Notes under the pieces: model-generated
Seen by the model: the letters and a program-made list of their open reading frames with translations, nothing else
Database searches by the model: none
What the model was told of the DNA's origin: nothing
Source of the DNA: Candidatus Parcubacteria bacterium
GTDB taxonomy: Bacteria; Patescibacteriota; Minisyncoccia; Minisyncoccales; JAGMDC01
DNA length: 64,000 bases
Direction: 5' to 3'
NCBI GenBank assembly: GCA_023130975.1
Contig: JAGMAD010000001.1
Span: 17,238 to 81,237 of the forward strand
Position numbers and translations under genes: made by a program
Shown: positions 10,211 to 54,574 of the stretch, piece by piece
Position numbering within the stretch: position 1 is the stretch's first letter
How the letters are laid out: each line of letters begins with the position of its first letter

Positions 10211-11332
10211 TTATTTTTTTAATATTTCTCTAAATGCCTTAATTACTTTTTCTAAATCTTCTTTATCAATAGAAAAAGTAGAAAGTTTGAAATGCTTGGT
10301 AAGGCCTGGTTTTATTCCTGTTATTCCTCGTTTCTTGAGTTCGTAATGCAAGAAAAATCTCCCTTTTGGATGTTTTAATGAAATTTTATAAAATGGCTCT
10401 GCTTTAAAAAATATTAAATCGTGTTTATGGGGTTTATCGCCTATTTGTTTCAGGCCTAATTTCTCCATTTCTTTTGAAAACCATTGGGCTTTTTTCTTTT
10501 CTTTTTCCCAATTTTTGACTCTTTCTAAAACAGCAGGGAATGAAGCCATTAAAGTAGCCATAGCTGTTCCTCTTAATTCAGAACCTAAAAATTCTATTTC
10601 TTGTTGAGGATAGATTTTTGATTTTCTCAAGATGATTTTTTCCCATTTTTTATCCATACCCAAGACGCCAATAGGTCCGGAGGAAGCCATTGATTTTTGG
10701 CCTGAACCAATTATGAAGTCAGCTCCAAGCTCCTTCATAGAAATTGGCATTCTTCCCACTGCATAAGCCCCATTGATTAAATACGGAACCTGGTATCTTT
10801 TGACAATCTCTCCCAATCTTTTGGCATCCGGTAAATTCCCATAATTTCCATCAGGATAAGTTAAAAGAACCAGGGCTGGTTTATGTTTTTTGATTAAGTC
10901 CTCATAATCCTCTACATTTATTTTATATTCCGGCTCTCCAGAATTTGGAACTTCAACAACTTTTAAGCCAGTCCTTTCAGCTGCTATAATGGTGGTATAA
11001 TGTCTGTTTCCATCAACAAGTATTGTCTTGCCTGGTTTTGCAATGGAATGTATTACATTAAATATGCCTTCCCTTACTCCAAGAGTAATTCTAACAATAT
11101 CTGCCCCCAAAAATTTTGGCATGGTTTCCTGAATAAATTCTTTAATTAAAGGCATTTCCATCAGTTCTAACCCAGGACTAAGATCATAGATAGAATATCC
11201 ATCACCAAACTCAACCAAGGCCTTTTCTGCCACCTTAGTTAATTCTCCTCCTTTCTGGATGGGATTTAAGTTAATCAATCCCTTATTCTTTCTTTCTAAT
11301 TTCTCAAATTTTTTGAGATTTTCATTAGTCAT
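10211..11332 (-). CDS. pscS: O-phospho-L-seryl-tRNA:Cys-tRNA synthase (SepCysS) homologue, cysteine-free
   Basis: Full-length similarity to archaeal SepCysS as recalled (INLNPIQKGG, GDGYS, VRITLGVREG, LLTYPDGNYGNLPDAK, NGAYAVGRMP, PLP-Lys motif GSGQKSMASSGP, TLMASFPAVLERVKNW, YELKKRGITGIKPGLTK). Overlaps sepS by 8 nt. Confidence 0.85.
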   Translation of the reverse strand: MTNENLKKFEKLERKNKGLINLNPIQKGGELTKVAEKALVEFGDGYSIYDLSPGLELMEMPLIKEFIQETMPKFLGADIVRITLGVREGIFNVIHSIAKPGKTILVDGNRHYTTIIAAERTGLKVVEVPNSGEPEYKINVEDYEDLIKKHKPALVLLTYPDGNYGNLPDAKRLGEIVKRYQVPYLINGAYAVGRMPISMKELGADFIIGSGQKSMASSGPIGVLGMDKKWEKIILRKSKIYPQQEIEFLGSELRGTAMATLMASFPAVLERVKNWEKEKKKAQWFSKEMEKLGLKQIGDKPHKHDLIFFKAEPFYKISLKHPKGRFFLHYELKKRGITGIKPGLTKHFKLSTFSIDKEDLEKVIKAFREILKK

Positions 11333-12752
11333 TTTTCTCTATTTCCATATCCACAAAAATAGGACCCCTAACATCAATCTTTTTGTTTTTTGAGGTGATA
11401 AATTTTTCCATTACTTTTTCTAATTCCAAATTAATTGACGGCAAAGTATCAGCTATTTTTATGGTATGCCTGCCAAAAGATTTCTTTTCAGCCAGCCAAG
11501 CGAACAAATTGGAAATCGCTTCTATGTAACTGTAGACCTTAATTCCTTTTTGAACCTCTTTTTGAAACTTTTTATCATTTTTATTTATTCCTAAAATATT
11601 TCCTTGATAAACATAGACAGTATTTAATCCGGCCGGTCCCAACAGTTTTTTATTGGTCTCGGGTTCGCTGATAAAAATTTTAACATCCTGATCCTTATAA
11701 ATTAGAAATTTTTGGGGACCAATTTCATCTTTGTATTTCAAAATGGCTTTTTCAATTTTTTTCTTTAATACTTTGCCTATTTTTGTCTTTGGCTGTTTTT
11801 TTAATTTAATATGAGAAGCAATTTCCTTATCATTAAAGACAGAAGAGGCATAAAATTGGGGATAAACCAATTTCCGAATATCAGTTATATTTTTTTTAAG
11901 CATGGCGAGCCGTTCCACCCCAAAGCCAACATTGAAAACCGGGTAGGGGATATTGTAATTAGACAAACTTATCGGAGAGTATAGCCCGCCATCTCCAACC
12001 TCTATGTTTTTATCTTTCTGTTTCACAAAAACTTCAAATTCTGTTTCCGGGGCGTAATAATTTGATGTCGCTGTTTTGGTTTCAAAGATAACTTTTGGAA
12101 AACCCATTTTTGAGAGGATTTTTTTTGTTAGGATTTTGCCTTCATTTAAATCAAGCTTTTTATCAACAACCACCAAAGAAGCGCTTAGGGACTCGTAAAG
12201 ATGCAAAGAATCTTGCTGCTGTTCTCTTCTAAATTTACTTCCGATAGAGAAAAGCTTTAAGGGAAGAATGTTTTTCTTGATGAGAGAGTTAATGGTCAGA
12301 AACCAAGCAGCAGTCATATGGGAACGGAGAACAGATTTTGTTGGTATTGGCTTTAATTTTTTGAGTTTTGGGAATAAAGTTAAAATCTCTGTTGCTTTTT
12401 CTGCTTTTATTTTTAACTTTTTGACCATTTCTTCAATCAAGTTATCAGCCTCTATCGTCCCTTTTTTAAATTCACGGAAGATTTTTTGAAGCTCTTTAAC
12501 ATCAATATCGGCAATTTTTTTTATCTCTCCAATGGTTTTTTTGGATATCCCAAGTTCGGGGATAGGAAGACCAGCTAAATAAAAACTCCTATTTAAAATA
12601 AGAGGAGCTTCGGCTCCATATTGCCTGTAAACATCTTTTTCCTGAATAATTGAAGGGTTTATTATTTCTTCAAACCCATAATCAAGAAAAACTTTTCTAA
12701 ATTTTTCAGTTAGCTCAATAACAGAATGTGGCTTACCTTTTTTTCTTTTCAT
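11325..12752 (-). CDS. sepS: O-phosphoserine--tRNA ligase (SepRS)
   Basis: Near-collinear with M. jannaschii SepRS as recalled (FYLAGLP, FKKGTIEADNLIEEM, LRSHMTAAWFLT, LPLKLFSIGSKFRREQ, YYAPETEFEV, GLYSPISL, NVGFGVERLAM, VYPQFY, KKLLGPAGLN..VYVY.GNI, IDVRGPIF). Start moved to the ATG at 12752 because the tracked extension runs through the tRNA-Cys gene. Confidence 0.9.
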   Translation of the reverse strand: MKRKKGKPHSVIELTEKFRKVFLDYGFEEIINPSIIQEKDVYRQYGAEAPLILNRSFYLAGLPIPELGISKKTIGEIKKIADIDVKELQKIFREFKKGTIEADNLIEEMVKKLKIKAEKATEILTLFPKLKKLKPIPTKSVLRSHMTAAWFLTINSLIKKNILPLKLFSIGSKFRREQQQDSLHLYESLSASLVVVDKKLDLNEGKILTKKILSKMGFPKVIFETKTATSNYYAPETEFEVFVKQKDKNIEVGDGGLYSPISLSNYNIPYPVFNVGFGVERLAMLKKNITDIRKLVYPQFYASSVFNDKEIASHIKLKKQPKTKIGKVLKKKIEKAILKYKDEIGPQKFLIYKDQDVKIFISEPETNKKLLGPAGLNTVYVYQGNILGINKNDKKFQKEVQKGIKVYSYIEAISNLFAWLAEKKSFGRHTIKIADTLPSINLELEKVMEKFITSKNKKIDVRGPIFVDMEIEKND

Positions 12753-12753
12753 A

Positions 12754-12824
12754 AGCCGGGAGGGAGAGTCGAACTCCCTTGAACCGGTCTGCAGCCGGCC
12801 GCATATCCGTTCTGCCATCCCGAC
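12754..12824 (-). tRNA. tRNA-Cys (anticodon GCA)
   Basis: Hand-folded cloverleaf. Acceptor GUCGGGA/UCCCGGC, U8, D stem GCA(G)/(A)UGC, anticodon arm GCCGG-CUGCAGA-CCGGU, 4-nt variable loop, T arm GGGAG-UUCGACU-CUCCC, discriminator U73. CCA is not encoded. Confidence 0.85.
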
Positions 12825-12864
12825 CTGTTTTTTTTATTATATCTAATATAAGCAATTCTTTCAA

Positions 12865-12961
12865 CCCCCATACCATAACAAGGATAGGCGAATTCGCAAA
12901 GCGAATTCGCTAACCCGCCAAACCCTTTGGGTTTGGCGGAAATCCTTGTTTGGTGTGGGGG
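12865..12961. mobile_element. GC-rich palindromic MITE-like element, family 1, intergenic copy (97 nt)
   Basis: Termini CCCCCATACCATAA / TTTGGTGTGGGGG. Extended stem ACAAGGA/TCCTTGT. Two inner hairpins (gcgaattcgc x2; ccgccaaaccc-ttt-gggtttggcgg). Flanked by direct tcaa/tcaa. Confidence 0.6.
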
Positions 12962-16665: not shown

Positions 16666-16698
16666 AAAGAATACCTGACTCCGCAGTTATGACTTCTA

Positions 16699-16836
16699 GC
16701 CCGAGGCAACCTTGTTCTGAGCTCGTCCTGAGCTCGTCGAAGGACTGCCTCGGGCTTTTGTTTTTCATTGATAAAAACCCAAAAATGAGTTAAATTAAAA
16801 GAATGGAGGAAAATAAAAACAGAATAAAAGATTTAG
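16699..16836 (+). repeat. Duplication copy A: GC terminator hairpin, radC promoter and first 11 radC codons
   Basis: gcccgaggc...gcctcgggcttttgttttt, then attgataaaaacccaaaaatgagttaaattaaaagaATGgaggaaaataaaaacagaataaaagattta. Matches 17523-17671. Confidence 0.85.
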
Positions 16837-17474: not shown

Positions 17475-17522
17475 GTGGAAAATTACACTTAACCAAAAAA
17501 GAAAATAAAACTTGAATTAGTT

Positions 17523-17671
17523 TGCCCGAGGCGATTGCCTCGGGCTTTTGTTTTTGATTGCTATTGAGTACCAAAAAAACCTGTCCTGAGCCTGTCGAAG
17601 GAATTGATAAAAACCCAAAAATGAGTTAAATTAAAGTAATGGAGGAAAATAAAAACAGAATAAAGGACTTA
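17523..17671 (+). repeat. Duplication copy B: terminator hairpin plus the functional radC promoter and 5' end
   Basis: TTGATA (17604-17609), 17 nt, TAAATT (17627-17632), 6 nt, ATG 17639. Differs from copy A by two synonymous changes in the 11 shared codons. Confidence 0.85.
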
Positions 17672-20046: not shown

Positions 20047-21726
20047 ATGGCTACTTATCAAGATTTTTCTTTAATTAAAAAAGAGGTTGAGTTTGTTAAA
20101 AAAAGAAATGATATAGATAAATTATCTATGGCTTTTATTTTTATGGTCCTAGAGAAATTATATCCAGATATAGAACCTTTTGAGAATATTACTGATGACA
20201 CAAGAGATTTAAGTGTAGATGCTTATTATATTGATAAAAATACGAAAACAATAAATATTTTTCAATTCAAATATACTGAAAATTTTAATACAGCAAGAAA
20301 TAAAAACGCTTTAAAAGAAAAAGAAATAAACGATTTTATTATAAAATTAAAGTATATTTGGGATAGGGACGAGGAATTTATTAAAAAAGCAAATCATAAA
20401 TTAAAAGACGCAATTAAGGAAATTTGGTCAGCATTTGAAGATGGATATACTAAAACAAATATTTACTTTGTTTCTAATTATAAAGATACAATTAATGGAG
20501 GAAATATTAAGGAAATTCAAAAAAAACTTAAAAATGAATTTAGAGGAAAATTAAAAATATTATCTTTAAATGATTTAATAAAGGTTTTTATAAAAGAAGA
20601 GTTTTCTCCAGTAGATATTAAATTACAGTTAAAGGGTAAAAATTACTTTGAAGAATCAACCGGTGATGTCAGAGCGTTGATTTCAGAAGTAAATGCGTTA
20701 AATTTTTTAAAATCAATTTTAGATGAAAATGATAATTTAATTGAAGATGTGTTTAATGAAAATATTAGGGTTTATTTGCGTTCCAATACAAAAATAAATA
20801 AACAGATATATAATTCTATTGAAAGCAAAAGTAATTATAAATTTTTTTATTACAACAATGGCATTACTGCTATTTGTGATAATTTTGAACACAATTTTTC
20901 TGATAGTCCAATTGTTAATATGGATAATTTTCAAATTGTTAATGGTGGCCAAACAATGCATGCTATTTACGAAGCCTATAAAAATGGATTACAGGATAAT
21001 GTAGGAAATATTTATTTACTTTTAAGAGTTTATGAGGTTAAAAAAAATAGGGAAATTGGTCAAGATATAGCAAGATTTACAAACACTCAAAATCCTGTAA
21101 AAAATAGAGATATAATGTCAAATGATATGATTCAGGTTAAATTACAAAAAGAATTAAGAAAAGAAGGATTTTTTTATGAAAGGAAGAAATACGAATTCAG
21201 AGATCAAAAAATTGGTAATGATAAAAAAGTAGATGCAGAAAAATTAGGACAATCAATCCTTGCTTTTTATATTGACAAACCGGGTTCTGCCAAAAATAAG
21301 AAGCAAGAAATTTTTGGAAATTTTTATAATAGTATTTTTGATGAAAGCAGAATAAATAGCGATTTTGTTCTATTACCCTATCTTTTATATAAAAAGATAG
21401 ATAACGATGTTAGAGAATTTAAAGTAGAACTAAAAAGATTAGAAAAGGCGGGAAAAACGGAAAAAATGAAAACAAAAATAGAAAGAAATGGATTTTTAAA
21501 TTATGCACATTATTATTTATTATTTACATTAAAAGTATTAGCTGATAAGAACAACATTTTGTTTGAAAAGGCAAATATTACAAAAATATTTGAGAATTAC
21601 AATAAGGCAAAAGATATATTACGTAAGATAGTTGATAAGGAAAAAAAGAATCCAAAATTTTCCATGCCCTATCTTTTTAAAACAGACGATCTTGTAAAAA
21701 AGATAAAAGACAAAATTGATAAATAG
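20047..21726 (+). CDS. AIPR (abortive-infection phage resistance) family protein
   Basis: YYNNGITAICD and FQIVNGGQTMHAIY blocks as I recall for the AIPR family. 559 aa, very AT-rich. Confidence 0.55.
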   Translation: MATYQDFSLIKKEVEFVKKRNDIDKLSMAFIFMVLEKLYPDIEPFENITDDTRDLSVDAYYIDKNTKTINIFQFKYTENFNTARNKNALKEKEINDFIIKLKYIWDRDEEFIKKANHKLKDAIKEIWSAFEDGYTKTNIYFVSNYKDTINGGNIKEIQKKLKNEFRGKLKILSLNDLIKVFIKEEFSPVDIKLQLKGKNYFEESTGDVRALISEVNALNFLKSILDENDNLIEDVFNENIRVYLRSNTKINKQIYNSIESKSNYKFFYYNNGITAICDNFEHNFSDSPIVNMDNFQIVNGGQTMHAIYEAYKNGLQDNVGNIYLLLRVYEVKKNREIGQDIARFTNTQNPVKNRDIMSNDMIQVKLQKELRKEGFFYERKKYEFRDQKIGNDKKVDAEKLGQSILAFYIDKPGSAKNKKQEIFGNFYNSIFDESRINSDFVLLPYLLYKKIDNDVREFKVELKRLEKAGKTEKMKTKIERNGFLNYAHYYLLFTLKVLADKNNILFEKANITKIFENYNKAKDILRKIVDKEKKNPKFSMPYLFKTDDLVKKIKDKIDK

Positions 21727-26031: not shown

Positions 26032-26727
26032 TTGATGATTTTAGAAAAAATGAACTACCTTGCCCCAAGGCGCAAGGTATCTCTTCGGGCAAGTTCTTTC
26101 GGCGGCTTTCATTCCCGCCGCTTGCGACGGGATATTTTCGCCACCGAAATAAAAAATAATTTATTCTTTTGTTCAGTTATAATAATATTTGTTATTTTCT
26201 TTTTAATTGACCTAATAATAGGAGATTCTCAATTATTTTTAATAATAAATAAAAAAATTGCCAATCCTTATTTGGATTGGATAGTTATTTCTATATTTTA
26301 CCCTTTATTTTCTCTTTTATTTATTGTTCCTTTAATTTGTCTTTTTAAAAAAGAATGGAGAAGAGCAAGTTTGATTGCTTTAATCTCTGGGCCGCTGAGT
26401 TATATTATAGGTGATTTTCTTAAAATTTTAATTGCCAGACCTCGACCATTTGAAGTTCTTTCTGTCAATTTATTAGGTCCTTGGCATACCACTAGTTTTT
26501 CCTTTCCTTCTACTACTACTGCCTTAGTTTTTGGCTTAGCTCTTCCATTTTTGATTTATAAAAATAAGTTTGCAGGTTTGCTTATCCCTATTTCTTTTTT
26601 AGTTGGATTTTCTGTAATTTATACAGGGTTTCACTTTCCCTTAGATGTAATGGCTGGCGCAATTCTTTCCTTAGTGCTTGTACTTTCTCTATCTATTTTT
26701 CTGACGAAGTTTAACATCAAAAAATAA
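26032..26727 (+). CDS. PAP2-family phosphatase (start uncertain)
   Basis: KILIARPRPF, SFPSTTTA, GFHFPLDVMAG PAP2 motifs. The first ~40 codons are the translated family-2 repeat element. Confidence 0.75.
   Translation: MMILEKMNYLAPRRKVSLRASSFGGFHSRRLRRDIFATEIKNNLFFCSVIIIFVIFFLIDLIIGDSQLFLIINKKIANPYLDWIVISIFYPLFSLLFIVPLICLFKKEWRRASLIALISGPLSYIIGDFLKILIARPRPFEVLSVNLLGPWHTTSFSFPSTTTALVFGLALPFLIYKNKFAGLLIPISFLVGFSVIYTGFHFPLDVMAGAILSLVLVLSLSIFLTKFNIKK
26050..26154 (+). repeat. GC-rich hairpin repeat, family 2, copy a (~105 nt)
   Basis: atgaactaccttgcc..cgggcaagttctttcggcggctttcattcccgcc..ccgaaataaaa. Aligns with 31512-31592 on the same strand. Confidence 0.7.
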
Positions 26728-29352: not shown

Positions 29353-30039
29353 TTATTTGACAATTTTCCACTCAATTTTTGATTCTTTATCCGCAAACTC
29401 CAACCATTGGCCATTTTTGTCAATGACATACCACTTTCTTTTTGTGTCTGACCAAACCATTGGGTCGCCTCTATAAAATGGCTTTTTAACAACCTCTTTT
29501 GGCTTTAATCGGTCTAATTCCAACCATTTTTTAAATACTGTTTCAATGGCATAATCCAGATTTCTAGATTTCGCCCATTCAGCGACCGTAGAAATGGCTT
29601 TTTTTGCTTTTTCCATTGAACCAGCAAGTTCTAAAAGCTGCTTTGCCGGCTTGGTAAACCGGGAATAAATAATCTTTCTTTTCTTAGCATTTTGTTTGAG
29701 CTCGCCCAAACTAAGCCCTTTGGTTTGAAAATAATGAGTAACAATCTGACGGATAGCAGTTTCTTGTTTTAATTTCTCATAATATTTAATCTTGCCTTTT
29801 TTCAGATATTCTTCAATTTTATCAGCGATACTTTTCCCCACGCCTTGGATTTCTTTCAAGCCCTTAACATCTCTTTTCTTGTAAATATCAACGATATCCT
29901 CTTTTAAATTTTCCAGAGCCAAAGCGGCTTTATGATAGGCCTGCGGTTTAAAAGACACTCCTTTTATTTTCAACAGTTCTTCTATTTCGTATAATATTTT
30001 AGCGATTTTTTGATTGGTCACTTTATTGATATTTTTCAA
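29353..30039 (-). CDS. Helix-hairpin-helix protein resembling the N-terminal part of family X polymerases
   Basis: NQKIAKILYEIEELLKIKG..FKPQAYHKAALALE...LKEIQGVGKSIADKIEEYL. No palm/NTase domain. Confidence 0.6.
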   Translation of the reverse strand: MKNINKVTNQKIAKILYEIEELLKIKGVSFKPQAYHKAALALENLKEDIVDIYKKRDVKGLKEIQGVGKSIADKIEEYLKKGKIKYYEKLKQETAIRQIVTHYFQTKGLSLGELKQNAKKRKIIYSRFTKPAKQLLELAGSMEKAKKAISTVAEWAKSRNLDYAIETVFKKWLELDRLKPKEVVKKPFYRGDPMVWSDTKRKWYVIDKNGQWLEFADKESKIEWKIVK

Positions 30040-30622
30040 CTTTGAATTTGTAAATTATTATTTTTTCTGTTTGAGGGTTGATATTGGCTTTTTGACAGGC
30101 AATAGAGATTTGTTTTTCTGAAGTATCCACTCCGTCTAAGTCAGGCAAAAGCAGTCCTGATTTAAAATGAGTCCTTGGCGCAGGTTCAAAAATAACATCA
30201 GAACCAGAAGAAAAGGACTGGGATTTTACAAGGATGCCGTATTTTTTCGGATCTAATTCATTTATGCTCTTTATTAATTCTGGTTTATTCAAAATATACA
30301 CAGTATAAGATAGTTCGGGCAACTCCTGTTTCTGAATAGGGGAGAAGCGATAATCTTCAGTGGCCGCAACAATAGCATTATGAATAATTTCCTGGGCAAT
30401 ATTTTCTTTTGTCGGCAAATAAGTGCCAATACATCCACGTAAAACTCGCTTTCGCTCGTCACGTGGCGCGCCCCGCAAATTCTCATCTTTTTCAATAGTC
30501 ACAAATGTGCCAGCTTTTCGGGTCAGAAACTCTTCTGGCAAATTTTTAGACGGAGAAATCGTCTTTCTTTCTTTTATGTAATTTTCCACCGCCTTTTTGG
30601 CAAGTGAGATATATTGATTCAT
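30023..30622 (-). CDS. AMMECR1 domain protein (AmmeMemoRadiSam system protein A)
   Basis: GTFVTI...LRGCIGTY core. Adjacent to the Memo-like and radical SAM partners. Confidence 0.8.
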   Translation of the reverse strand: MNQYISLAKKAVENYIKERKTISPSKNLPEEFLTRKAGTFVTIEKDENLRGAPRDERKRVLRGCIGTYLPTKENIAQEIIHNAIVAATEDYRFSPIQKQELPELSYTVYILNKPELIKSINELDPKKYGILVKSQSFSSGSDVIFEPAPRTHFKSGLLLPDLDGVDTSEKQISIACQKANINPQTEKIIIYKFKVEKYQ

Positions 30623-31187: not shown

Positions 31188-31874
31188 TTATCGTAATTTG
31201 AAATTTACGACGAGATAACCGACGCCGAAAGGGTATTCGTATGATAAAATTTCCGGCTGCCAATTTAAACCCGAGGCCTGTAAAATTCCTAAAAGAAAAG
31301 AAAAAGAGCGCAGGCCGCATTCGCCGGCCTCTGGAAAATATTCATCTAACTTCAAAAAATTTTTAATATCTTTTTTCTTTAGATATTCAATCAATGCCTT
31401 GTCAAATTTTGGACCATCAGGATGAAGACCATAAGGACCATCTTCTTTTAAGCAGTGAGACATATCACCAGAAGCGATCAGGGCATATCTCTTTTCTTTT
31501 TCCAATTTATTATGAACTACCCTGCCCTTCAGGGCAGGGTATCCCTCCGGGCAAGTTCTTTCGACGGCTTTCATCCCGCCGCCGAAATAAAACTTTTTTC
31601 CTCGTTGATAATAAAAATCAGGAGTTTTATCAGGAATAAATAATTGCCGGCTTGGAATACGTTGCTTAGGATTTAAGAAATAAAGCGGAACGTTAAAACC
31701 CCAATCAGGATGAGGAGAGGAAATAATAATATTGTTAGGATTAGATTCCTTTAATTTTTTTCCTAAAAACTCCAAATTTTCAATTGTTTTTTTAACTTTC
31801 TCTCTATCCTCTAGCGAGCCAACTTCAGGCAAAAGCAGGGGAGGATGAGGAGAAAAGCAAGCAAAAGAAATCAT
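31188..31874 (-). CDS. Memo/LigB-superfamily protein (AmmeMemoRadiSam system protein B-like)
   Basis: FSPHPPLLLPE, IASGDMSHCL, AGECGLRSF. Located between the AMMECR1 and radical SAM partners. Confidence 0.65.
   Translation of the reverse strand: MISFACFSPHPPLLLPEVGSLEDREKVKKTIENLEFLGKKLKESNPNNIIISSPHPDWGFNVPLYFLNPKQRIPSRQLFIPDKTPDFYYQRGKKFYFGGGMKAVERTCPEGYPALKGRVVHNKLEKEKRYALIASGDMSHCLKEDGPYGLHPDGPKFDKALIEYLKKKDIKNFLKLDEYFPEAGECGLRSFSFLLGILQASGLNWQPEILSYEYPFGVGYLVVNFKLR
31512..31592 (+). repeat. GC-rich hairpin repeat, family 2, copy b (~81 nt) inside the Memo-like gene
   Basis: atgaactaccctgcccttcagggcagggtatccctccgggcaagttctttcgacggctttcatcccgccgccgaaataaaa. Translated antisense as FGGGMKAVERTCPEGYPALKGRVVH. 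Confidence 0.7.
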
Positions 31875-31889
31875 AAAAATCTCTAATTT

Positions 31890-32981
31890 TTAATTTAAAA
31901 TTAAATTTAAATCTTCTTCGCATTTAGCGCATTTGCCGTTTTTGTCAAAACGTTTGATGGTATAGCCGAGCCGCTCAATTGCCAAAGTCCCGCATTTTGG
32001 ACAATAAGTGTTTTCGCTTTCTAAACCCGGCACATTACCAGTATAAACATATTTTAAGCCAGCTTTTTTACCAATTTCAAAAGCCATTTTTAATGTCTCA
32101 ACCGAAGTATCAGGTAAGTGCTGTAATTTCCAAGAAATTGTACCAGAAAATTGAGAAATATGCCAGGGCGTTTCAATACCTAACTCGTTTTTAATAAAAT
32201 TAGCGATATTTTCAAACATTTCTTTAGAATCAGTTAAGGTAGGAATGACTAAAGTTGTTACTTCTAGCCAAATGTTTTTTCCTTTCAAACGCTTTAGAGT
32301 ATCTAAAACTGGCTGTAATAGTCCGCCGCAGTATTTTATGTAAAACTCATCAGAAAAACCTTTTAGGTCAATATTCGCGGCGTCAAGATAAGGAGAAATT
32401 AAATCAAAAAGTTCTTTTGACCAAAATCCATTGCTAACCCAGACATTTTTTATTCCTTGCTTTTTAGCTAATTTCATTGTATCTAAAGCATATTCAGAAA
32501 AAATGGTAGGTGAAGTATAGGTATAAGCAATAGAAGGTAAATTATTCTCTTTGGCAATTTTAACAATTTCTTCTGGCGATAAATCTTCTCCTTCAATCTT
32601 TCCAGTCAATTGAGGCATTTGAGATATATCATAATTTTGGCAATTTGCACATCTAAAATTACATCCTACAGTGGCGATAGATAATGACTGAGTACCGGGT
32701 AAAAAGTGAAATAAAGGTTTTTTTTCAATAGGATCAATATTACAGGCAATAGCTTTGCCATAATTCAGGGCATAAAGTTTTCCATCAATATTTTCTCTCA
32801 CACCGCAAATCCCTCTCTTTCCTTGTTCAATAACACAATAATGAGCGCAATTTCGGCACTGAACAATTTTGTTCTTTAGTTTTTTGTAAAGATATGCTTC
32901 TTTCACCCCCACACCATAATAAGCACCGGCACCTTTGGTGCCAAAAGACGAAGTATGTGTTTGTTTGGTGTGGGGGTTCAT
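31890..32981 (-). CDS. AmmeMemoRadiSam system radical SAM enzyme
   Basis: N-terminal Cys cluster (CRNCAHYC..GICGVR), radical SAM CNFRCANCQN, C-terminal CPKC..CAKC ribbon. Confidence 0.85.
   Translation of the reverse strand: MNPHTKQTHTSSFGTKGAGAYYGVGVKEAYLYKKLKNKIVQCRNCAHYCVIEQGKRGICGVRENIDGKLYALNYGKAIACNIDPIEKKPLFHFLPGTQSLSIATVGCNFRCANCQNYDISQMPQLTGKIEGEDLSPEEIVKIAKENNLPSIAYTYTSPTIFSEYALDTMKLAKKQGIKNVWVSNGFWSKELFDLISPYLDAANIDLKGFSDEFYIKYCGGLLQPVLDTLKRLKGKNIWLEVTTLVIPTLTDSKEMFENIANFIKNELGIETPWHISQFSGTISWKLQHLPDTSVETLKMAFEIGKKAGLKYVYTGNVPGLESENTYCPKCGTLAIERLGYTIKRFDKNGKCAKCEEDLNLILN
32906..32976. mobile_element. Family-1 MITE-like element (71 nt) inserted just after the radical SAM start codon
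   Basis: CCCCCACACCATAA...TTTGGTGTGGGGG, flanked by direct ttca/ttca (32902-32905, 32977-32980). Confidence 0.65.
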
Positions 32982-33082
32982 TATCTTAATTATACCTTAA
33001 TTTTGAACCAATACATAATCTTGACAAAGAAAGGTTATTATGTTAATTTGTTAATAACAGTTCCTAAAATAGGAGGTTGAAT

Positions 33083-33503: not shown

Positions 33504-34092
33504 TTATAATAAAACGTCTATCACCACCTTCTCTGACATCTCTTTATACCTATTTCGTATGGTAACTTCGGCCACGAATCAAACGTTTTTTCATTGCTTT
33601 CCGGTACAATACTGATGCCGCTTCTCTGATGTCTCTTGAGAGTCCAAGCGCACAAGCCATTCGGTCTATCTCAGAAAGAGCGAAAATAAGACTCCTTTCA
33701 CTAGTCATAAGTCCACTATCTCTAACTCTACGTCGCATTCTTCGAAAATCATCTCGTCCTTGAAAATCTTTAGGAAGAAGATTACTTAGTCCTTTATCAT
33801 GTATTCTATTAGTCATTGGTGCTCCGACCCTCACTCTCTTTGAGAATTGCTCAGAGTCAAAAGCCCGCCATTCCGGGCCAAGGTCTATGATATTTTCTGC
33901 TATTACCATACCACACTCAGCACAATAAAGTTCGGCGCGTTTGCGATCCAGTATTAAATCTTTAGAGCCGCATTCAGGACACTTTCTTATTCTATTTGGA
34001 CCTTCTATATTTAAGTTTTCATCATTATTATCATTATTCTGGACAAAATTACGTTTCAATCTTTCTTTAGCTTCTACACTCACTTTTATCAT
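33504..34092 (-). pseudogene. Archaeal-type transcription initiation factor B (TFB/TFIIB), internally deleted remnant
   Basis: ORF 33550-34092 encodes the Zn ribbon, B-reader and B-linker up to ..LIRGRS, then a stop. An overlapping shifted frame across that stop reads [23 protein letters not shown], the conserved TFB C-terminus. Confidence 0.7.
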
Positions 34093-42268: not shown

Positions 42269-43816
42269 ATGGAAAAAGTTGATAGATTAAGAAAAAAATA
42301 TCCGAGATTTGTTTATGAAAAATATTTTTATCAAATCTTTAAAAATGATTTAAAGATTTTTTTTGATTTTAGGATAGCTCCTGACATTAGATTTAGACCA
42401 ACAATAATTGTAAAAAATATTGACAAACAAAATTTATCAATGATCAGTGATAAATTATTAGATAATCTTGTTTTTCATTTGGGTTTAATGGAAATTCCCA
42501 GTTATTGGAAAACTACTTGCTCGCCAGAAATTGAAATTAGAGCCGGCTATTTAAATAAAGAACAAATTAAATGGTGGAAAGATTTAATTATCAATGGAAT
42601 GGGCCAATTCTTTTATGAAAATAGGATTGATTTCAGAGAGTCAAGTTTTCTAAAAATTATTTCAAATGAGCAAAAAAGCGGGCGAAGACGGACTTCGCCT
42701 GCTTCGTTCAATTTGGGCGAAGTCCGTCCTCGCTTTGTCTCGCAAAAAAATAGATTTTTAATCCCAATGGGAGATGGCAAGGATTCAATTGTTACTTTAG
42801 AGCTGCTAAAAAGAAAAAAGTTAGAGGTTAATTGTTTTATTGTTAATCCTTTTAAAGAGCATTTTAAGATTTTGAAAATCGCAGGAATTAAAAACCCCGT
42901 AATTGTAGAACGGAAAGTTGATCCAACTTTATTAGCATTGAATCGAAAAGGATTTTTAAACGGACATACGCCGATAACTGCTTTAATTTCCAACTTAGCA
43001 GTTTTTTGCGGAGTTTTATTTGGTTATGGAAACGTAGTAATGTCCTGCGAGAAAAGCGCTAATGAAGGTAATATAAAATACTTGCCCCCACACCATAATG
43101 GAGACATGCCGCTTTCAGCGGCGAAATTAGCAAGGCCAGCCCCCATTTGGTGTGGGAGTAAAGGAAAAATCATTAATCATCAATGGTCAAAAAGTTTTGA
43201 ATTTGAGGAAAAATTCCGATATTATTCTAAGAAATATTTAACAAAAGAAGTAGAATATTTTAGTTTTTTGCGTCCTTTATATGAAATTCAAATAGCAAGA
43301 TTATTCTCTAAGCTTACAAAATATTTTTCGGTTTTCCTTAGTTGTAATGAGGCATATAAAACTGCTTCTGGAACCAAAAAACCAACTGGCAAATGGTGCG
43401 GGAAATGCTCAAAATGCTTGTTTATTTGGACAATTTTATATCCTTTTGTAAAAGAAAAAGAGCTGATTAAAATTTTCAAAAAAAATCTTTTTAAAGATAA
43501 GAATCTAATTCCAATAATGAAAGAACTAATAGGGGATAGTAAATGCAAGCCACTTGAATGTGTGGGCACAAAAAAAGAAAGCTTAATTGCTTTTTACCTA
43601 TCATACAAAAAATCCATAGGTGACACCTATGGCAATTTCTATGGCAATAGTGATAATTTATCGGCTTTGTTGAAATACTTTCAAAATAAAGTTTTACCGA
43701 ATTACTCAAAATTAAAATTAGAAAATGATTCAAAAAGGATATTAAATTCATGGAATAAGCAAAATAATCTTCCTAAAAAATTTGACAAAATTTTACGAAA
43801 AGCATATTATAAATGA
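42269..43816 (+). CDS. PP-loop-like / Cys-cluster protein in the dcw cluster; candidate UDP-MurNAc-L-Ala-L-Glu epimerase (MurL-like)
   Basis: FLIPMGDGKDSIVTLELL resembles an SGGxDS-type ATP pyrophosphatase loop. GKWCGKCSKCLF is a QueC-like Cys cluster. Sits between mraY and murD. The family assignment is an inference. Confidence 0.4.
   Translation: MEKVDRLRKKYPRFVYEKYFYQIFKNDLKIFFDFRIAPDIRFRPTIIVKNIDKQNLSMISDKLLDNLVFHLGLMEIPSYWKTTCSPEIEIRAGYLNKEQIKWWKDLIINGMGQFFYENRIDFRESSFLKIISNEQKSGRRRTSPASFNLGEVRPRFVSQKNRFLIPMGDGKDSIVTLELLKRKKLEVNCFIVNPFKEHFKILKIAGIKNPVIVERKVDPTLLALNRKGFLNGHTPITALISNLAVFCGVLFGYGNVVMSCEKSANEGNIKYLPPHHNGDMPLSAAKLARPAPIWCGSKGKIINHQWSKSFEFEEKFRYYSKKYLTKEVEYFSFLRPLYEIQIARLFSKLTKYFSVFLSCNEAYKTASGTKKPTGKWCGKCSKCLFIWTILYPFVKEKELIKIFKKNLFKDKNLIPIMKELIGDSKCKPLECVGTKKESLIAFYLSYKKSIGDTYGNFYGNSDNLSALLKYFQNKVLPNYSKLKLENDSKRILNSWNKQNNLPKKFDKILRKAYYK
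42678..42743. repeat. GC-rich 66-nt hairpin insert (family 3) inside the MurL-like ORF
   Basis: Arms gcgaagacggacttcgcc (42682-42699) and ggcgaagtccgtcctcgc (42716-42733), 17/18 complementary. Flanked by A runs. Translated as GRRRTSPASFNLGEVRPRFVSQ. Confidence 0.65.
43085..43158. mobile_element. Family-1 MITE-like element (74 nt, degenerate right end) inside the MurL-like ORF
   Basis: CCCCCACACCATAA...ATTTGGTGTGGGAG. Inner hairpin gccgc-tttca-gcggc. Translated as PPHHNGDMPLSAAKLARPAPIWCGS. Confidence 0.55.
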
Positions 43817-51880: not shown

Positions 51881-52555
51881 TCACTTTCCGAAGCGGCGGT
51901 GGTGAAGAAAGTATTCATAAAGGGCTGTATCTAAGTCCTTTTCAGTAAAATCAGGCCAATATTTATCAAAAAAGAAAATTTCAGAATAGGCGGCCTGCCA
52001 GATTAAAAAATTAGAAATCCGTTTTTCCTTGCCAGTTCTGATAATTAAGTCAAGGTCAGCCGTCCAAAGATTTTTGGAAATTACATCTTCATTAATTTTT
52101 TCTAAAGAAATTTTCTTTTTAATTATATTTTTTATTGCCTCAACAATTTCAGCTCTGCCGCCATAACTTAAAGCAATATTCAAAATCATATTTTTGTTAT
52201 TTTTAGTAATTTTTTCAATCCTTCTTATTGCCTTTTGAAGGTCTTTAGATAATCTTTGCTTCTGACCAATAACCACAACCTTAATTCCTTGTTTGTCAAG
52301 GTCTTTAACATCTAAAATGCTCTTAATCAAATACATTAAATAATTTATTTCTTTTTTGGGCCTTTTCCAGTTCTCAGTGGAAAAAACAAATAATGTTAGA
52401 ATTTTTATTCCTTTGTTTTTAGAGGCCTTAATAATATTCTTTACCACTTCTCTGCCCTTTTTATGGCCATCAAAAACAGGCAAATTCTTCTCTTTCGCCC
52501 ATCTTCTATTTCCATCTAAAATAATGCCTAAATGATAAGGTATTTTCTTTTTCAT
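51881..52555 (-). CDS. uppS: Isoprenyl transferase (cis-prenyltransferase, UppS family), paralogue 1
   Basis: HLGIILDGNRRWA, FVFSTENWKRP, IRTGKEKRISNFLIWQAAYSE, RRFG. Confidence 0.9.
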   Translation of the reverse strand: MKKKIPYHLGIILDGNRRWAKEKNLPVFDGHKKGREVVKNIIKASKNKGIKILTLFVFSTENWKRPKKEINYLMYLIKSILDVKDLDKQGIKVVVIGQKQRLSKDLQKAIRRIEKITKNNKNMILNIALSYGGRAEIVEAIKNIIKKKISLEKINEDVISKNLWTADLDLIIRTGKEKRISNFLIWQAAYSEIFFFDKYWPDFTEKDLDTALYEYFLHHRRFGK

Positions 52556-52567
52556 TTAATTAAATAA

Positions 52568-53578
52568 TCAGAATAAAAAATCTCCTTCTATGTTAATTTC
52601 TTTTGGCAGAAGCCAGGGAAAATTGCTTCTAGAGAAATAAACTGTTTTTTTAATTATTTTTGAAAAAATAATTTTTGGCAAGAAAAATTTATTAACTTCC
52701 TTCTTATATTTTATAAAATCTGGAAAATTCTTCAAGAGAATATCAGCTGATATTAAAGACCATACCACTCCCCCGCCGGACCAGGGTTTGGTAAGACCAG
52801 TAGCATCGCCACAAAGAGTGATTTTAGAATTTTTAGGAATTATCGGCACTAATGTTTGGGGAATTATGGCTGCTTTTCTTTTCAGAAGATAAATTTTCTT
52901 TTCTTTTAAAAATCTATCGAAATAATTCTTTGCTTTCTTAAAGTCCTCCATTATCCCATATTCTATATTTTCTCCTCGAGGGATTCTCCAAATAAAACCA
53001 GAATTAGTTGCCCAGGTTTCTAGATAGTTAGAATTATCTTTTTTTTCTAAAAATCCTTGAATAGCCAAGAAAAATCGCGGTTCTGAAAGGTTTAATTCTC
53101 TTCTAATAACAGAATTTGCTCCATCGCAGCCAATAGTTCTATCAACCCCCACACCATAACGAGGACTAACTTCGTTAATTTTGGTGCCTTCAGCACCTTG
53201 TCCTCGTTTGGTGTGGGGGTCAAATTCCTTTGGAAAATCATCTATTTTATTGTTTAAAATAATTTTCGCTCCTGAATTTTGAGCTAGATGGGCCACTAAA
53301 TTATCTAATTTATAATGGCTCATTACGAAAAAACTTTTTTTAAAAATAATCTTTGAAGTTTTTCTTGGAAAGTGAATTAATACTTCTTTGATTTCATTTT
53401 GAATTAATTTCTTGCTTTCTGGAATAAAGTCAAAGATTCTTTCGCTAAAAAGGCCTGAGCAGACTTCTTTGCCTATTTTTCCTTTTTTTTCAAAGACAAT
53501 TACCTCCTCGCCTTTTTGGGAAAGTTTCCAGGCAAGATATAATCCTGTAATACCTGCTCCGACAATAACAATCTTCAT
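52568..53578 (-). CDS. FAD-dependent oxidoreductase, geranylgeranyl reductase family, carrying an in-frame repeat insert
   Basis: KIVIVGAGITGLYLA..EVIVFEKK dinucleotide fold. IGCDGANSVIRR. C-terminal CGDATGLTKPWSGGG. Confidence 0.75.
   Translation of the reverse strand: MKIVIVGAGITGLYLAWKLSQKGEEVIVFEKKGKIGKEVCSGLFSERIFDFIPESKKLIQNEIKEVLIHFPRKTSKIIFKKSFFVMSHYKLDNLVAHLAQNSGAKIILNNKIDDFPKEFDPHTKRGQGAEGTKINEVSPRYGVGVDRTIGCDGANSVIRRELNLSEPRFFLAIQGFLEKKDNSNYLETWATNSGFIWRIPRGENIEYGIMEDFKKAKNYFDRFLKEKKIYLLKRKAAIIPQTLVPIIPKNSKITLCGDATGLTKPWSGGGVVWSLISADILLKNFPDFIKYKKEVNKFFLPKIIFSKIIKKTVYFSRSNFPWLLPKEINIEGDFLF
53146..53219. mobile_element. Family-1 MITE-like element (74 nt) in frame inside the flavoprotein gene
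   Basis: CCCCCACACCATAA...TTTGGTGTGGGGG with inner stem ACGAGGAC/GTCCTCGT. Direct tcaa/tcaa flanks (53142-53145, 53220-53223). Confidence 0.7.
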
Positions 53579-53640: not shown

Positions 53641-54336
53641 TTAAGTACCAAACCTTCTCCAGCGATTACTATATTCTTTAAGAGCTTTATCTAAATCTTT
53701 TTCTGTAAAATCAGGCCATAGTTTTTTTAAAAAAACAAATTCAGAATAAGCAATATGCCAAAGTAGAAAATTAGAAAGCCTTTGTTCTCCACCGGTTCTT
53801 ATAACTAAATCGGGGAAATGATATGTACCGGCACAAAGATGTTCTGTTAGTACATCCTCTGTAACTTTTTCAGCTGGAATTCTTTTCTCAATTATTTTTT
53901 TAACCGATTCTACAATATCCCATTTTCCACTGTAGCTTACTGCCAAATTAATAAAAAAATTTTTGTTATTCATTGTTTTCTCTTCGGCCTCTTCTATAAC
54001 ATTTATTAGAGATTTGGGTAATTTTTCTACACAACCTATAACTTTAATTTTGGTTCCTTCTGCAATAGAGTCTTTCAAAATCTCTTTAATTTTCTCTTCA
54101 AAAAAAGACATTAAGAAATCAACTTCTTCTTTGGGTCGTTTCCAGTTTTCCATTGAAAAACCCCATAGAGTTACCATTTTTACTCCTCTATTTTTGCACC
54201 AATAAGTGAATTTCTTTAGATTATTGTAAGCGGCAGAATATCCTTCGGCTAAAGAAAGATTATTTTTTCTCGCCCATCTTCTATTGCCGTCAGCAATTAT
54301 TGCAATATGGTACGGAATTTTACTGATGTTTTTCAT
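53641..54336 (-). CDS. uppS: Isoprenyl transferase (UppS family), paralogue 2
   Basis: HIAIIADGNRRWA, WGFSMENWKRP, IRTGGEQRLSNFLLWHIAYSE, RRFG. Confidence 0.9.
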   Translation of the reverse strand: MKNISKIPYHIAIIADGNRRWARKNNLSLAEGYSAAYNNLKKFTYWCKNRGVKMVTLWGFSMENWKRPKEEVDFLMSFFEEKIKEILKDSIAEGTKIKVIGCVEKLPKSLINVIEEAEEKTMNNKNFFINLAVSYSGKWDIVESVKKIIEKRIPAEKVTEDVLTEHLCAGTYHFPDLVIRTGGEQRLSNFLLWHIAYSEFVFLKKLWPDFTEKDLDKALKEYSNRWRRFGT

Positions 54337-54574
54337 ATTCTATTCTAATTGGCTCTTTTTCCTGCTGTTGAGCTACTATATATCCCATAGCAAAAGAAAG
54401 CAAAGAAATTAAGATAACACCAATTAGGAGTATTATATCTTCTTTATTCTGCTTGACAAACTGTGATAATTTTGATAACATAAAATCACGAAGCGTTAGC
54501 GAAGGGATTTTACCCCCTCCTTTTCGCGCTTGCGCAAGAGGAGGGGGTTCTCGCTCGCTATCGCTCGCTCGAAC

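Follow-up and report, generated by a model that had tools for sequence, protein, structure and literature searches.

A palindromic insertion element at the start codon of a radical SAM gene in a Candidatus Parcubacteria bacterium, and its many-copy family of folded inserts, often in frame within genes

A stretch of 64,000 nucleotides from the genome of a Candidatus Parcubacteria bacterium (assembly GCA_023130975.1, contig JAGMAD010000001.1), analysed here at full length and referred to as the window, carries on its minus strand a gene for a radical SAM enzyme (open reading frame (ORF) 31890..32981). The enzyme is a member of the AMMECR1 / Memo-like (LigB) / radical SAM cluster, known as AmmeMemoRadiSam. 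A 71-nt palindromic element, assigned to what is called family 1, lies at the very beginning of this gene (32906..32976, minus strand). On the plus strand, the order is TTCA (32902-32905), the element (32906-32976), a second TTCA (32977-32980), and a T at 32981, opposite the A of the radical SAM ATG. The coding strand therefore reads A-TGAA-[element]-TGAA-AGAAGC. The upstream TGAA (32977..32980, minus strand) overlaps the start codon as A-TGAA, and the original ATG (32979..32981, minus strand) is kept upstream of the element. The downstream TGAA (32902..32905, minus strand) runs into AGAAGC to give K-E-A-Y, and a second potential start, a junction GTG (32904..32906, minus strand), arises where the element's final G meets the TG of the duplicated target. 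A TATAAT box resembling a -10 element (32989..32994, minus strand) ends 7 nt before the ATG.

The element begins on the plus strand with CCCCCACACCATAA and finishes with TTTGGTGTGGGGG. It is bounded by 11-nt perfect terminal inverted repeats (CCCCCACACCA / TGGTGTGGGGG), which enclose an inner stem and one small hairpin (GGCACC-AAA-GGTGCC), and it folds better than shuffled versions of itself (z = -4.3 to -4.7). In its sense orientation it encodes (N)PHTKQTHTSSFGTKGAGAYYGVG(V), the peptide encoded in the radical SAM gene being NPHTKQTHTSSFGTK... Element and duplicated tetramer together contribute 71 + 4 = 75 nt, or 25 codons, and are stop-free, so that the gene stays open as a 363-residue frame with the N-terminus MNPHTKQTHTSSFGTKGAGAYYGVGV followed by KEAYLYKK. 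A preliminary description, made from the letters of the window, had proposed this layout and this arithmetic, and both are exact.

Orthologues of the enzyme show what the site looks like without the element. In 100 of the 120 best orthologues, the CxxCxHxC motif is preceded by exactly 16 residues, and these proteins start with a sequence resembling MKEAYLYKK. The 25 residues are thus absent from most orthologues, and the canonical N-terminus that excision was expected to restore is real. Gene callers can skip the element (NCBI starts this gene at GTG), and empty sites were consequently checked in DNA. Five relatives (L119, L120, L123, L124, and L125) have such sites, with the sequences ataGTGAAAGAAGCC, gtgATGAAGGAAGC, ataATGAAAGAAG, ATGATGAAAGAGG, and aatATGAGGGAGG and the consensus (A/G)TGAA(A/G)GA(A/G)G. 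Arranged by identity of the host protein, the alleles read gtg-ATGAAGGAAGC in L123 (90%), ata-GTGAAAGAAGCC in L119 (89%), ATGATGAAAGAGG in L120 (87%), ata-ATGAAAGAAG in L124 (82%), and aat-ATGAGGGAGG in L125 (79%). The tetramer, TGAA or TGAG, is present once in these empty alleles, and TGAA is present twice in the occupied one; the element was inserted here with a 4-bp target duplication, as had been proposed. An empty allele of the source genome itself was sought in JGI metagenomes, with no match.

A homologous element occupies the identical radical SAM position in three other lineages (L122/P0060, L121/P0017, and L145). The preliminary description had held that the same 25 residues in orthologues from element-free relatives would speak against an insertion. 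P0017, P0060, and L145 do have them, but their genomes carry the element itself and are therefore not element-free relatives. In a neighbour-joining tree of 41 host proteins, the occupied genes included (the window gene, P0060, and P0017) fall into three separate clades among unoccupied relatives, a scatter compatible with recurrent insertion at a hot spot or with an ancient insertion that was later lost precisely. Compared with L122, the window is 87.8% identical in the element interior, 78.9% in the coding sequence, and 60% at third codon positions. One stem pair differs on both sides, as ACAAGC/GCTTGT in L122 and ACAATC/GATTGT in L121.

The window holds further copies. The 10-mer terminus, allowing at most one mismatch, occurs eight times as four inward-facing pairs, compared with a mean of 0.54 and a maximum of 3 in shuffles, and in single-stranded form all four copies fold much more stably than shuffles do (z -4.2 to -11.7). 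Copy (b) is the radical SAM insertion. Copy (a), of 97 nt (12865..12961, no strand assigned), is intergenic, is flanked by TCAA on both sides, and folds into an outer stem with two inner hairpins (DNA fold -44 kcal/mol). Copy (c), of 74 nt (43085..43158, plus strand), lies in frame in MurL and adds 26 residues (PPHHNGDMPLSAAKLARPAPIWCGSK), and copy (d), also of 74 nt (53146..53219, minus strand), lies in frame in an FAD-dependent oxidoreductase, to which it too adds 26 residues (DPHTKRGQGAEGTKINEVSPRYGVGV). Orthologue alignments place exactly these 26 residues between KYL and GK for (c) and between KEF and DRTIG for (d). The flanks of copy (d) are TTGA and TTGA on the sense strand, and the target tetramer is found once in empty alleles and twice in occupied ones; its site is occupied in three further orthologues, two of which have a different element interior. 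Copy (c) has no duplication: its flanks are CTTG and TAAA, and the net addition is the 74 nt plus TAAA after CTTG. In a MurL that is 58% identical (P0248), the same site reads CTTG-[element 1]-CTTG-[element 2]-TAAA. As P0248 also has CTTG...TAAA, the flank mismatch of copy (c) is ancestral. A covariance model (R1) found no hidden degenerate copies in the window.

The surroundings of two of these copies deserve mention in their own right. Copy (a) lies 40 nt upstream of a tRNA-Cys gene (12753-12825), which stands together with an ORF for a SepRS-like synthetase (11325..12818) and one for a SepCysS/SepSecS-like protein (10211..11332); this region (window 10211-12825) represents the indirect Cys-tRNA pathway in a bacterium of the candidate phyla radiation (CPR). 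The oxidoreductase that hosts copy (d), which is geranylgeranyl-reductase-like, is flanked by two paralogues of the undecaprenyl-diphosphate-synthase family (window 51881-52555 and 53641-54336).

The preliminary description had suggested a search for further copies with matching flanks, and these proved numerous. A scan for paired termini, with one genome per species, yielded at least 115 genome stretches and at least 139 non-redundant copies among the matches listed, and the family-wide counts of flanks, frames, and ORF share given here and below rest on those copies. The terminus pair CCCCCACACC...GGTGTGGGGG represents the ends of family 1, flanked by T-N-N-A, and the family design can be written T-N-N-A-CCCCCACACCA...TGGTGTGGGGG-T-N-N-A. 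The hosts among the matches listed are overwhelmingly Patescibacteria (CPR), including many Parcubacteria groups and contigs labelled Saccharibacteria, Doudna-, Moran-, Woese-, Uhr-, Falkow-, and Kerfeldbacteria, and others. The copies measure 50-113 nt, with length modes at 68, 71, 74, and 80. Bare forms of 27-38 nt, with little beyond the terminal arms, extend the overall range to 27-113 nt. Interiors vary between copies yet are always self-complementary, both orientations are represented family-wide, roughly 30% of copies are located within ORFs, and tandem elements, spaced by exactly one tetramer, are frequent. A covariance-model search recovers the same copy set as the terminus pattern.

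Target duplication extends to this wider set. The two 4-mers beside the element match exactly in 50 of 138 copies, compared with 9.3 expected (5000 shuffles, maximum 20), and there is no such signal at 3 or 5 nt. Matched pairs include the rare tetramers CAAG, CATG, TCCG, and CGAA, and the target tetramers seen comprise TTTA, TTCA, TAAA, TCAA, TTGA, TGAA, TATA, and others. The idea that the flanks merely extend the stem was rejected, since inverted flank pairs occur at chance (14 observed, 14.4 expected).

Some observations lie at the edge of the family. Copies also occur on contigs assigned outside Patescibacteria (L053, L063, and L064, labelled Omnitrophota; L041 and L055, labelled Planctomycetes; and L015 and L027), and L041 and L063 have flanks in common. 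These contigs could reflect true spread to Omnitrophota or mis-binning. A sister family with the form TAAA-CCCCGCACC...GGTGCGGGG-TAAA lies in the MurL of a close relative (L119, 259-328), where it was detected by a covariance model and missed by the terminus pattern. An intergenic element in the window (54515-54560), TTTA-CCCCCTCCTTTTCGCGCTTGCGCAAGAGGAGGGGG-TTCT, has C5...G5 termini like those of family 1 and is probably another sister family.

Within genes, the elements respect the reading frame. Element length plus four is divisible by three in 38 of 40 copies that lie within frames open for at least 50 codons on each side, and genic copies are almost all 3n and stop-free, whereas intergenic-like copies are split 23/24/21 among the three frames, with no bias. 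This first genic test was partly circular, as a single frame across the element was required. With the frame of each side picked separately, the reading frame was continuous in 37 of 47 copies that have coding flanks. The ten exceptions comprise four antisense shadows of genic copies, four gene junctions, and two that were not inspected (L049 and L115); among the eight inspected, none has coding sequence that resumes in a shifted frame across the element. As the 3n, stop-free state marks copies in genes and not the uniform ones between genes, the elements are translated rather than spliced or bypassed. The frame filter is confined to genic copies, and the tabulation by length modulo 3 proposed earlier supports the view of a tolerated in-frame extension.

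Frame usage among genic copies is uneven, with 27 read as xPHT...GVGV, 11 as PPH...WCGG, and two as xPTP. The last frame is rare because the flanking tetramer is then read as a codon TNN, and the commonest targets, TAAA and TGAA, supply stops. In AlphaFold models based on orthologue alignments (predicted template modelling score 0.85 for both), the inserts contain the only internal low-confidence segments, namely residues 1-21 of the radical SAM enzyme and residues 120-140 of the FAD oxidoreductase, whose insert spans 120-145. According to these models, the 25 added residues are apparently harmless to the radical SAM enzyme. The peptide differs between the window and L122 by four amino-acid changes, which result from six nucleotide changes.

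The 74-nt subfamily is clearly homologous across genomes and allows the fold to be assessed. For the outer and inner stem (21 copies), 97.4% of positions are paired, compared with 46-58% when the partner is slid, and there are 26 double-sided changes, compared with 6.6 ± 2.0 in shuffles, a number reached in 0 of 500. When the two small hairpins with GAA/AAA loops are counted as well (14 copies), pairing amounts to 93.8% of cells (slid-partner range overall 40-58%). In this full fold, 13 pairs have changed on both sides, and 36 such cells are seen as against 11.1 ± 2.6 in shuffles, with 0 of 500 reaching the observed number. The subfamily is a T/Y-shaped hairpin kept by compensatory changes. 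The stem carries a conserved one-base bulge, relative to which the interior is flipped in five of the 21 copies. Erosion of the hairpin inside genes was considered and rejected, as stability is the same as in intergenic copies (p = 0.48). In Rfam, only tRNAs reach the gathering score, and permissive scans give 18-bit matches to miRNA-like hairpins, whose thresholds are 76-90.

Start codons are a hot spot for these elements, as ATG-AAx supplies the favoured target TGAA. Metagenomes contain 22 stretches with the layout ATGAA-[element]-TGAA, and 11 distinct genes among them have a short upstream region and a long downstream ORF. Start-proximal copies are found in TsaD-like (L100), GT2 (L069 and L128), prepilin, FolD-like, and UppS-like genes, among others. 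Seven of the 11 metagenomic cases belong to the 71-nt subfamily of copy (b) and all have one orientation, which makes eight of eight with the window, and these copies give otherwise unrelated proteins the sequence MNPHTKQxHTSxFGAKG...YGVGV. Turned around, the window copy would likewise have no stop in that frame, so stops do not explain this orientation bias.

Several lines of evidence bear on which start codon the radical SAM gene now uses. Shine–Dalgarno sequences are absent in 40 of the 42 long ORFs of the window, and many window genes, the radical SAM gene included, have a TATAAT-like box 6-10 nt before the start codon; similar -10-like boxes are present in L145 and L122. A box 7 nt before the ATG suggests a leaderless or very short-leader mRNA, and the pattern across the window suggests that such mRNAs may be widespread there. 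In 10 of the 11 distinct start-codon genes, moreover, a frame opened at the upstream ATG runs through the element and meets no stop. It is therefore probable that the protein starts at the original ATG and reads through the element. The same insertion could instead have left the protein to start at the junction GTG (32906-32904), the ancestral N-terminus being kept and the element lying in the 5' leader or being translated only as a short upstream frame; this is the main alternative, but a less likely one. The preliminary description had offered that start as an alternative, and part of its case stands: NCBI annotates the start there (P0001, 338 aa), and a change in the element's final base in L121 has produced an ATG exactly at the junction. 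Junction restarts also occur, as L069 has no upstream ATG and the element of L128 is out of frame, so that both must restart at or after the junction. In addition, the element peptide is not conserved as a protein would be, judging from the changes between the window and L122. Against a GTG start, there is essentially no Shine–Dalgarno use, which together with the nearby -10-like box indicates a leaderless mRNA that would require a 5'-terminal AUG. The GTG is also buried in a 12-bp G/C-rich stem, and preservation of the ATG frame in 10 of 11 start-codon insertions would be unneeded if restarting were the rule.

Copy (b) is probably a non-autonomous palindromic element resembling the miniature transposable elements with inverted repeats known as MITEs, inserted at A-TGAA as an in-frame extension and belonging to a CPR-wide family. 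The element would have entered the TGAA that overlaps the radical SAM start codon and left a second TGAA behind, and the protein would most likely be initiated at the original ATG, with a 25-residue disordered N-terminal tail. We infer both this use of the upstream ATG and mobilisation in trans, by an enzyme that would make 4-bp staggered cuts at T-N-N-A. The best guess for such an enzyme is a DDE transposase of the IS1380/piggyBac type. Chemistry of that type would also accommodate unmatched flanks, as the excised element would take four flanking nucleotides with it as overhangs and the donor would be repaired seamlessly.

Several observations weigh against this account. A Pfam search of all window ORFs of at least 180 aa found no transposase, only a Xer-type tyrosine recombinase, and no transposase lies beside solitary termini. 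All-against-all clustering of 1130 ORFs from 111 loci revealed no recurrent neighbour enzyme, only housekeeping families. A cognate DDE transposase bounded by family termini was not found in about 1 Mb of DNA, in a search that was not exhaustive. Only about 36% of copies have identical flanks, the CTTG...TAAA of copy (c) and P0248 cannot be a decayed duplication, and unmatched pairs such as TTTA/TGAA recur. The low share of identical flanks and the ancestral mismatch at copy (c) mean that simple duplication does not explain every copy. Furthermore, the dominant subfamily lengths (68, 71, 74, 80, and 83) are all 3n+2, and the in-frame signal may thus partly reflect which copies are active rather than a filter at each site. 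Lastly, conservation of the interior exceeds that of synonymous sites (87.8% vs 60%), and the interior co-varies, both of which hint at a function beyond selfish persistence.

Other carriers were also sought. Whole-genome scans covered terminus pairs up to 600 bp apart. Of possible autonomous copies, with termini 130-4000 bp apart, L105 (2110-3572) was the sole candidate, and it was rejected because an RNase J gene is what lies between its termini. No match was found in viral contigs that would indicate carriage by phage.

Part of this evidence would be accommodated if the elements moved as single-stranded hairpins through a Y1/HUH enzyme, in the style of palindrome-associated transposable elements (PATEs) derived from IS200/IS605 or of repetitive extragenic palindromic (REP) sequences and their REP-associated tyrosine transposases (RAYTs). 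The right tetramer would then be part of the element and the left one the target that is recognised, and the resemblance between the two would only look like a duplication. A T/Y-shaped single-strand fold kept by compensatory changes is in line with this, as are flanks that are often non-identical yet retain T..A, the addition of element plus TAAA after CTTG at copy (c), the tandem arrays, and the conserved bulge in the stem. We nevertheless regard it as unlikely, for the 11-bp inverted repeats are perfectly symmetric, the exact 4-nt repeats include rare tetramers (CAAG, CATG, TCCG, and CGAA), and the tetramer at sites (b) and (d) is present once when empty and twice when occupied. Both orientations occur, and no Y1 transposase lies near any copy.

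The conservation of the fold raises the further question of whether the host benefits. A structured module, either a 5' mRNA hairpin that tunes translation or stability or a DNA cruciform that binds protein, might be kept by selection. Its three helices are maintained by compensatory changes, even within one orthologous insertion (L122 vs L121), the interior has changed less than third codon positions have, hairpin stability is equal in genes and between genes, and the 71-nt subfamily stands at start codons in a single orientation. Yet copies occur in unrelated genes, in loops, N-termini, and spacers, and their presence varies among close orthologues; the family as a whole uses both orientations, no known RNA family matches, and repair or templating can keep palindrome arms matched without selection. 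That the elements are kept by selection as such a module is improbable. Even less credible is excision of the element from the message, or its bypass by the ribosome in a programmed, intron-like manner. The elements are compact and strongly folded, and in one yeast mitochondrial system GC-rich hairpin inserts in an AT-rich genome are reportedly bypassed. Removal would impose no constraint on frame or stops, yet such a constraint is seen in genic copies (3n, stop-free) and missing from the uniform intergenic ones, and no shifted-frame continuation was seen among the eight exceptions inspected (L049 and L115 were not inspected).

Insertion of a mobile MITE-like element is therefore the preferred explanation, and it invites comparison with known repeats. 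Rickettsia palindromic elements (RPEs; Ogata et al. 2000/2002) are, as a review summarises, about 100-150 bp long and confined to Rickettsia (PMC10969869). Both groups are small palindromic repeats in the reduced genomes of host-dependent bacteria, both lie repeatedly in frame in unrelated housekeeping genes and are translated as fold-compatible peptides, and neither has an identified transposase (PMC10969869). The present elements, likewise palindromic repeats translated in frame within coding genes, differ in their length of 27-113 bp, their invariant 11-bp C-rich/G-rich termini, their T-N-N-A flanks, their significant 4-bp duplication, and their superphylum-wide distribution. Their termini and peptides are presumably unlike those of RPEs; taxon and length differ as well, and we treat RPEs as an analogue rather than as a group to which these elements belong.

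Like bacterial MITEs (Coxiella QMITE1/2, Correia, ERIC, and Nezha), the elements are non-coding and multi-copy, with terminal inverted repeats, direct repeats, and hairpins, and occasional in-frame fusion with host ORFs is also known among MITEs (PMC5896051). At 27-113 nt they have no capacity to encode a transposase, and 11-nt perfect inverted repeats are present in the four window copies and at least 139 others. Target duplication relative to empty sites is seen at (b) and (d), and copy (c) does not fit. The family is nonetheless far shorter than the typical 100-400 bp, has a 4-bp T-N-N-A flank where MITEs have TA or repeats that vary from 2 to 11 nt, and combines a variable, modular, always paired interior with a very wide host range and no known parent insertion sequence.

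A 4-bp duplication that begins with T and ends with A, as in the TTAA of piggyBac, and CCC...GGG ends are features that the family shares with piggyBac and IS1380, with the target relaxed here to T-N-N-A. IS1380, as described in ISfinder, has CC ends and repeats of 4-5 bp; the present elements have CC(C)...GG(G) ends. In piggyBac excision, four flanking nucleotides are carried as overhangs and the donor is repaired seamlessly (PMC7351741), and IS1380 is a prokaryotic relative of piggyBac (PMC10813416). By analogy, excision of this type could account both for flanks that do not match and for the patchwork of empty and occupied sites. On the other hand, piggyBac is eukaryotic, and no transposase with the present termini was found.

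REP sequences and bacterial interspersed mosaic elements (BIMEs), which are associated with RAYTs of the Y1 type, are also short GC-rich palindromes that adjoin a tetranucleotide, are often arrayed, and probably fold as single strands (PMC3733652). Their GTAG or CGTC tags, extragenic location, lack of target duplication, and linkage to RAYTs (PMC3733652) do not hold here, where the flanks are T-N-N-A, about 30% of copies are in ORFs, the duplication is of 4 bp, and no neighbour enzyme recurs. The constraint on length and stops in genic copies likewise separates the family from bypassed or intron-like inserts, for which none applies.

The terminal hairpins of parvoviruses such as adeno-associated virus are T-shaped, with an outer stem around two small hairpins and with flip and flop orientations. 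The present fold also has an outer stem enclosing two small hairpins, and its interior occurs in two orientations, the flipped form being that of the five copies noted above. The likeness is a structural analogy only, as here there is no replication-origin context and no Rep gene, and the inserts are chromosomal.

Searches of the literature for palindromic, MITE, or in-frame repeats in CPR/Patescibacteria, and for the terminal sequence, found no description. The family is thus apparently undescribed, and in kind it belongs with in-frame palindromic MITE-like elements, akin to RPEs; its breadth of distribution, its covariation-supported fold, and its defined T-N-N-A target are its notable features. 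A 2024 review merely speculates that RPE-like in-frame repeats might exist beyond Rickettsia (PMC10969869). In-frame palindromic repeats, thought frequent only in Rickettsia, now appear in a large and separate radiation of reduced genomes, in which many candidate phyla share a single conserved element design. This matters for annotation, as gene callers disagree on starts (338 aa according to NCBI vs 363 aa for the radical SAM enzyme), and CPR protein lengths vary through such inserts (447-603 aa in MurL). Alignments, phylogenies, and structure predictions for CPR proteins will contain segments derived from elements. Clean empty and occupied sites, the T-shaped fold, and the T-N-N-A target make the hunt for the mobilising enzyme directly testable.

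A more speculative reading, to which we give little weight, is that family 1 is part of a CPR-spanning superfamily of hairpin transposons that reaches Omnitrophota and is moved by an unrecognised enzyme with piggyBac-like chemistry (T-N-N-A targets, flank-carrying intermediates, and seamless excision). It would include the sister families CCCCGCACC, CCCCCTCC, and CCCTCCCA and the YPVK...FNRV type. If this were true, the in-frame 3n+2 design would have added loop and N-terminal extensions to the proteins of ultra-small bacteria on a large scale, and would still be doing so. A subfamily would have become specialised for start codons, and expression might there be modulated by its 5' hairpin, which is orientation-specific, or by its peptide tag.

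Other in-frame inserts lie close to the elements described. A second palindromic, GC-rich family occurs at 31514-31587 and 26058-26147 of the window, with the common sequence GGGCAAGTTCTTTCGNCGGCTTTCAT(T)CCCGCCGC. One copy is in frame in the neighbouring Memo/LigB gene and the other is in a PAP2-like ORF. Memo/LigB has 228 aa in the window and 203 aa in L119 and L120. AMMECR1 (ORF 30023..30622) has 199 aa compared with 187 aa in close relatives, and a GC-rich stretch, NLRGAPRDERKRVLR, lies at 30441-30489. All three AmmeMemoRadiSam cluster genes seem to carry in-frame extras. MurL contains a further in-frame palindrome (window 42670-42745) with 18-nt arms, GCGAAGACGGACTTCGCC / GGCGAAGTCCGTCCTCGC, in a region whose length is hypervariable among orthologues. 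Additional in-frame inserts are found in orthologues of the radical SAM enzyme (P0007, P0008, P0009, P0080, and P0097), the FAD oxidoreductase (P0154 and P0187), and MurL (P0264). One type, YPVKS...QFNRV, back-translates to the palindrome TACCCTGTTAAA / TTTAACAGGGTA, and a second reads YPS(I/G)A.GG(D/E)ER(K/M)F. These inserts represent additional families of elements, which have struck these genes at other positions.

A TFIIB-like protein, with a zinc ribbon and a partial cyclin repeat, is encoded at 33550-34092 of this bacterial window; with 180 aa, compared with 294 aa in L119, it looks truncated. The TFIIB-like and SepRS genes had prompted consideration of an archaeal intron of the bulge–helix–bulge type, which was rejected, as the homologues are in Parcubacteria and the inserts are translated. 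Two terminator-like hairpins (16696-16761 and 17516-17553) have a common stem, GCCCGAGGC/GCCTCGGGC, followed by TTTTGTTTTT, the first with extra sequence in its loop. An abortive-infection-type (AIPR) protein is encoded at 20047-21726, in the stretch of lowest GC content (0.24 at 20-22 kb), and this region may be a small defence island.

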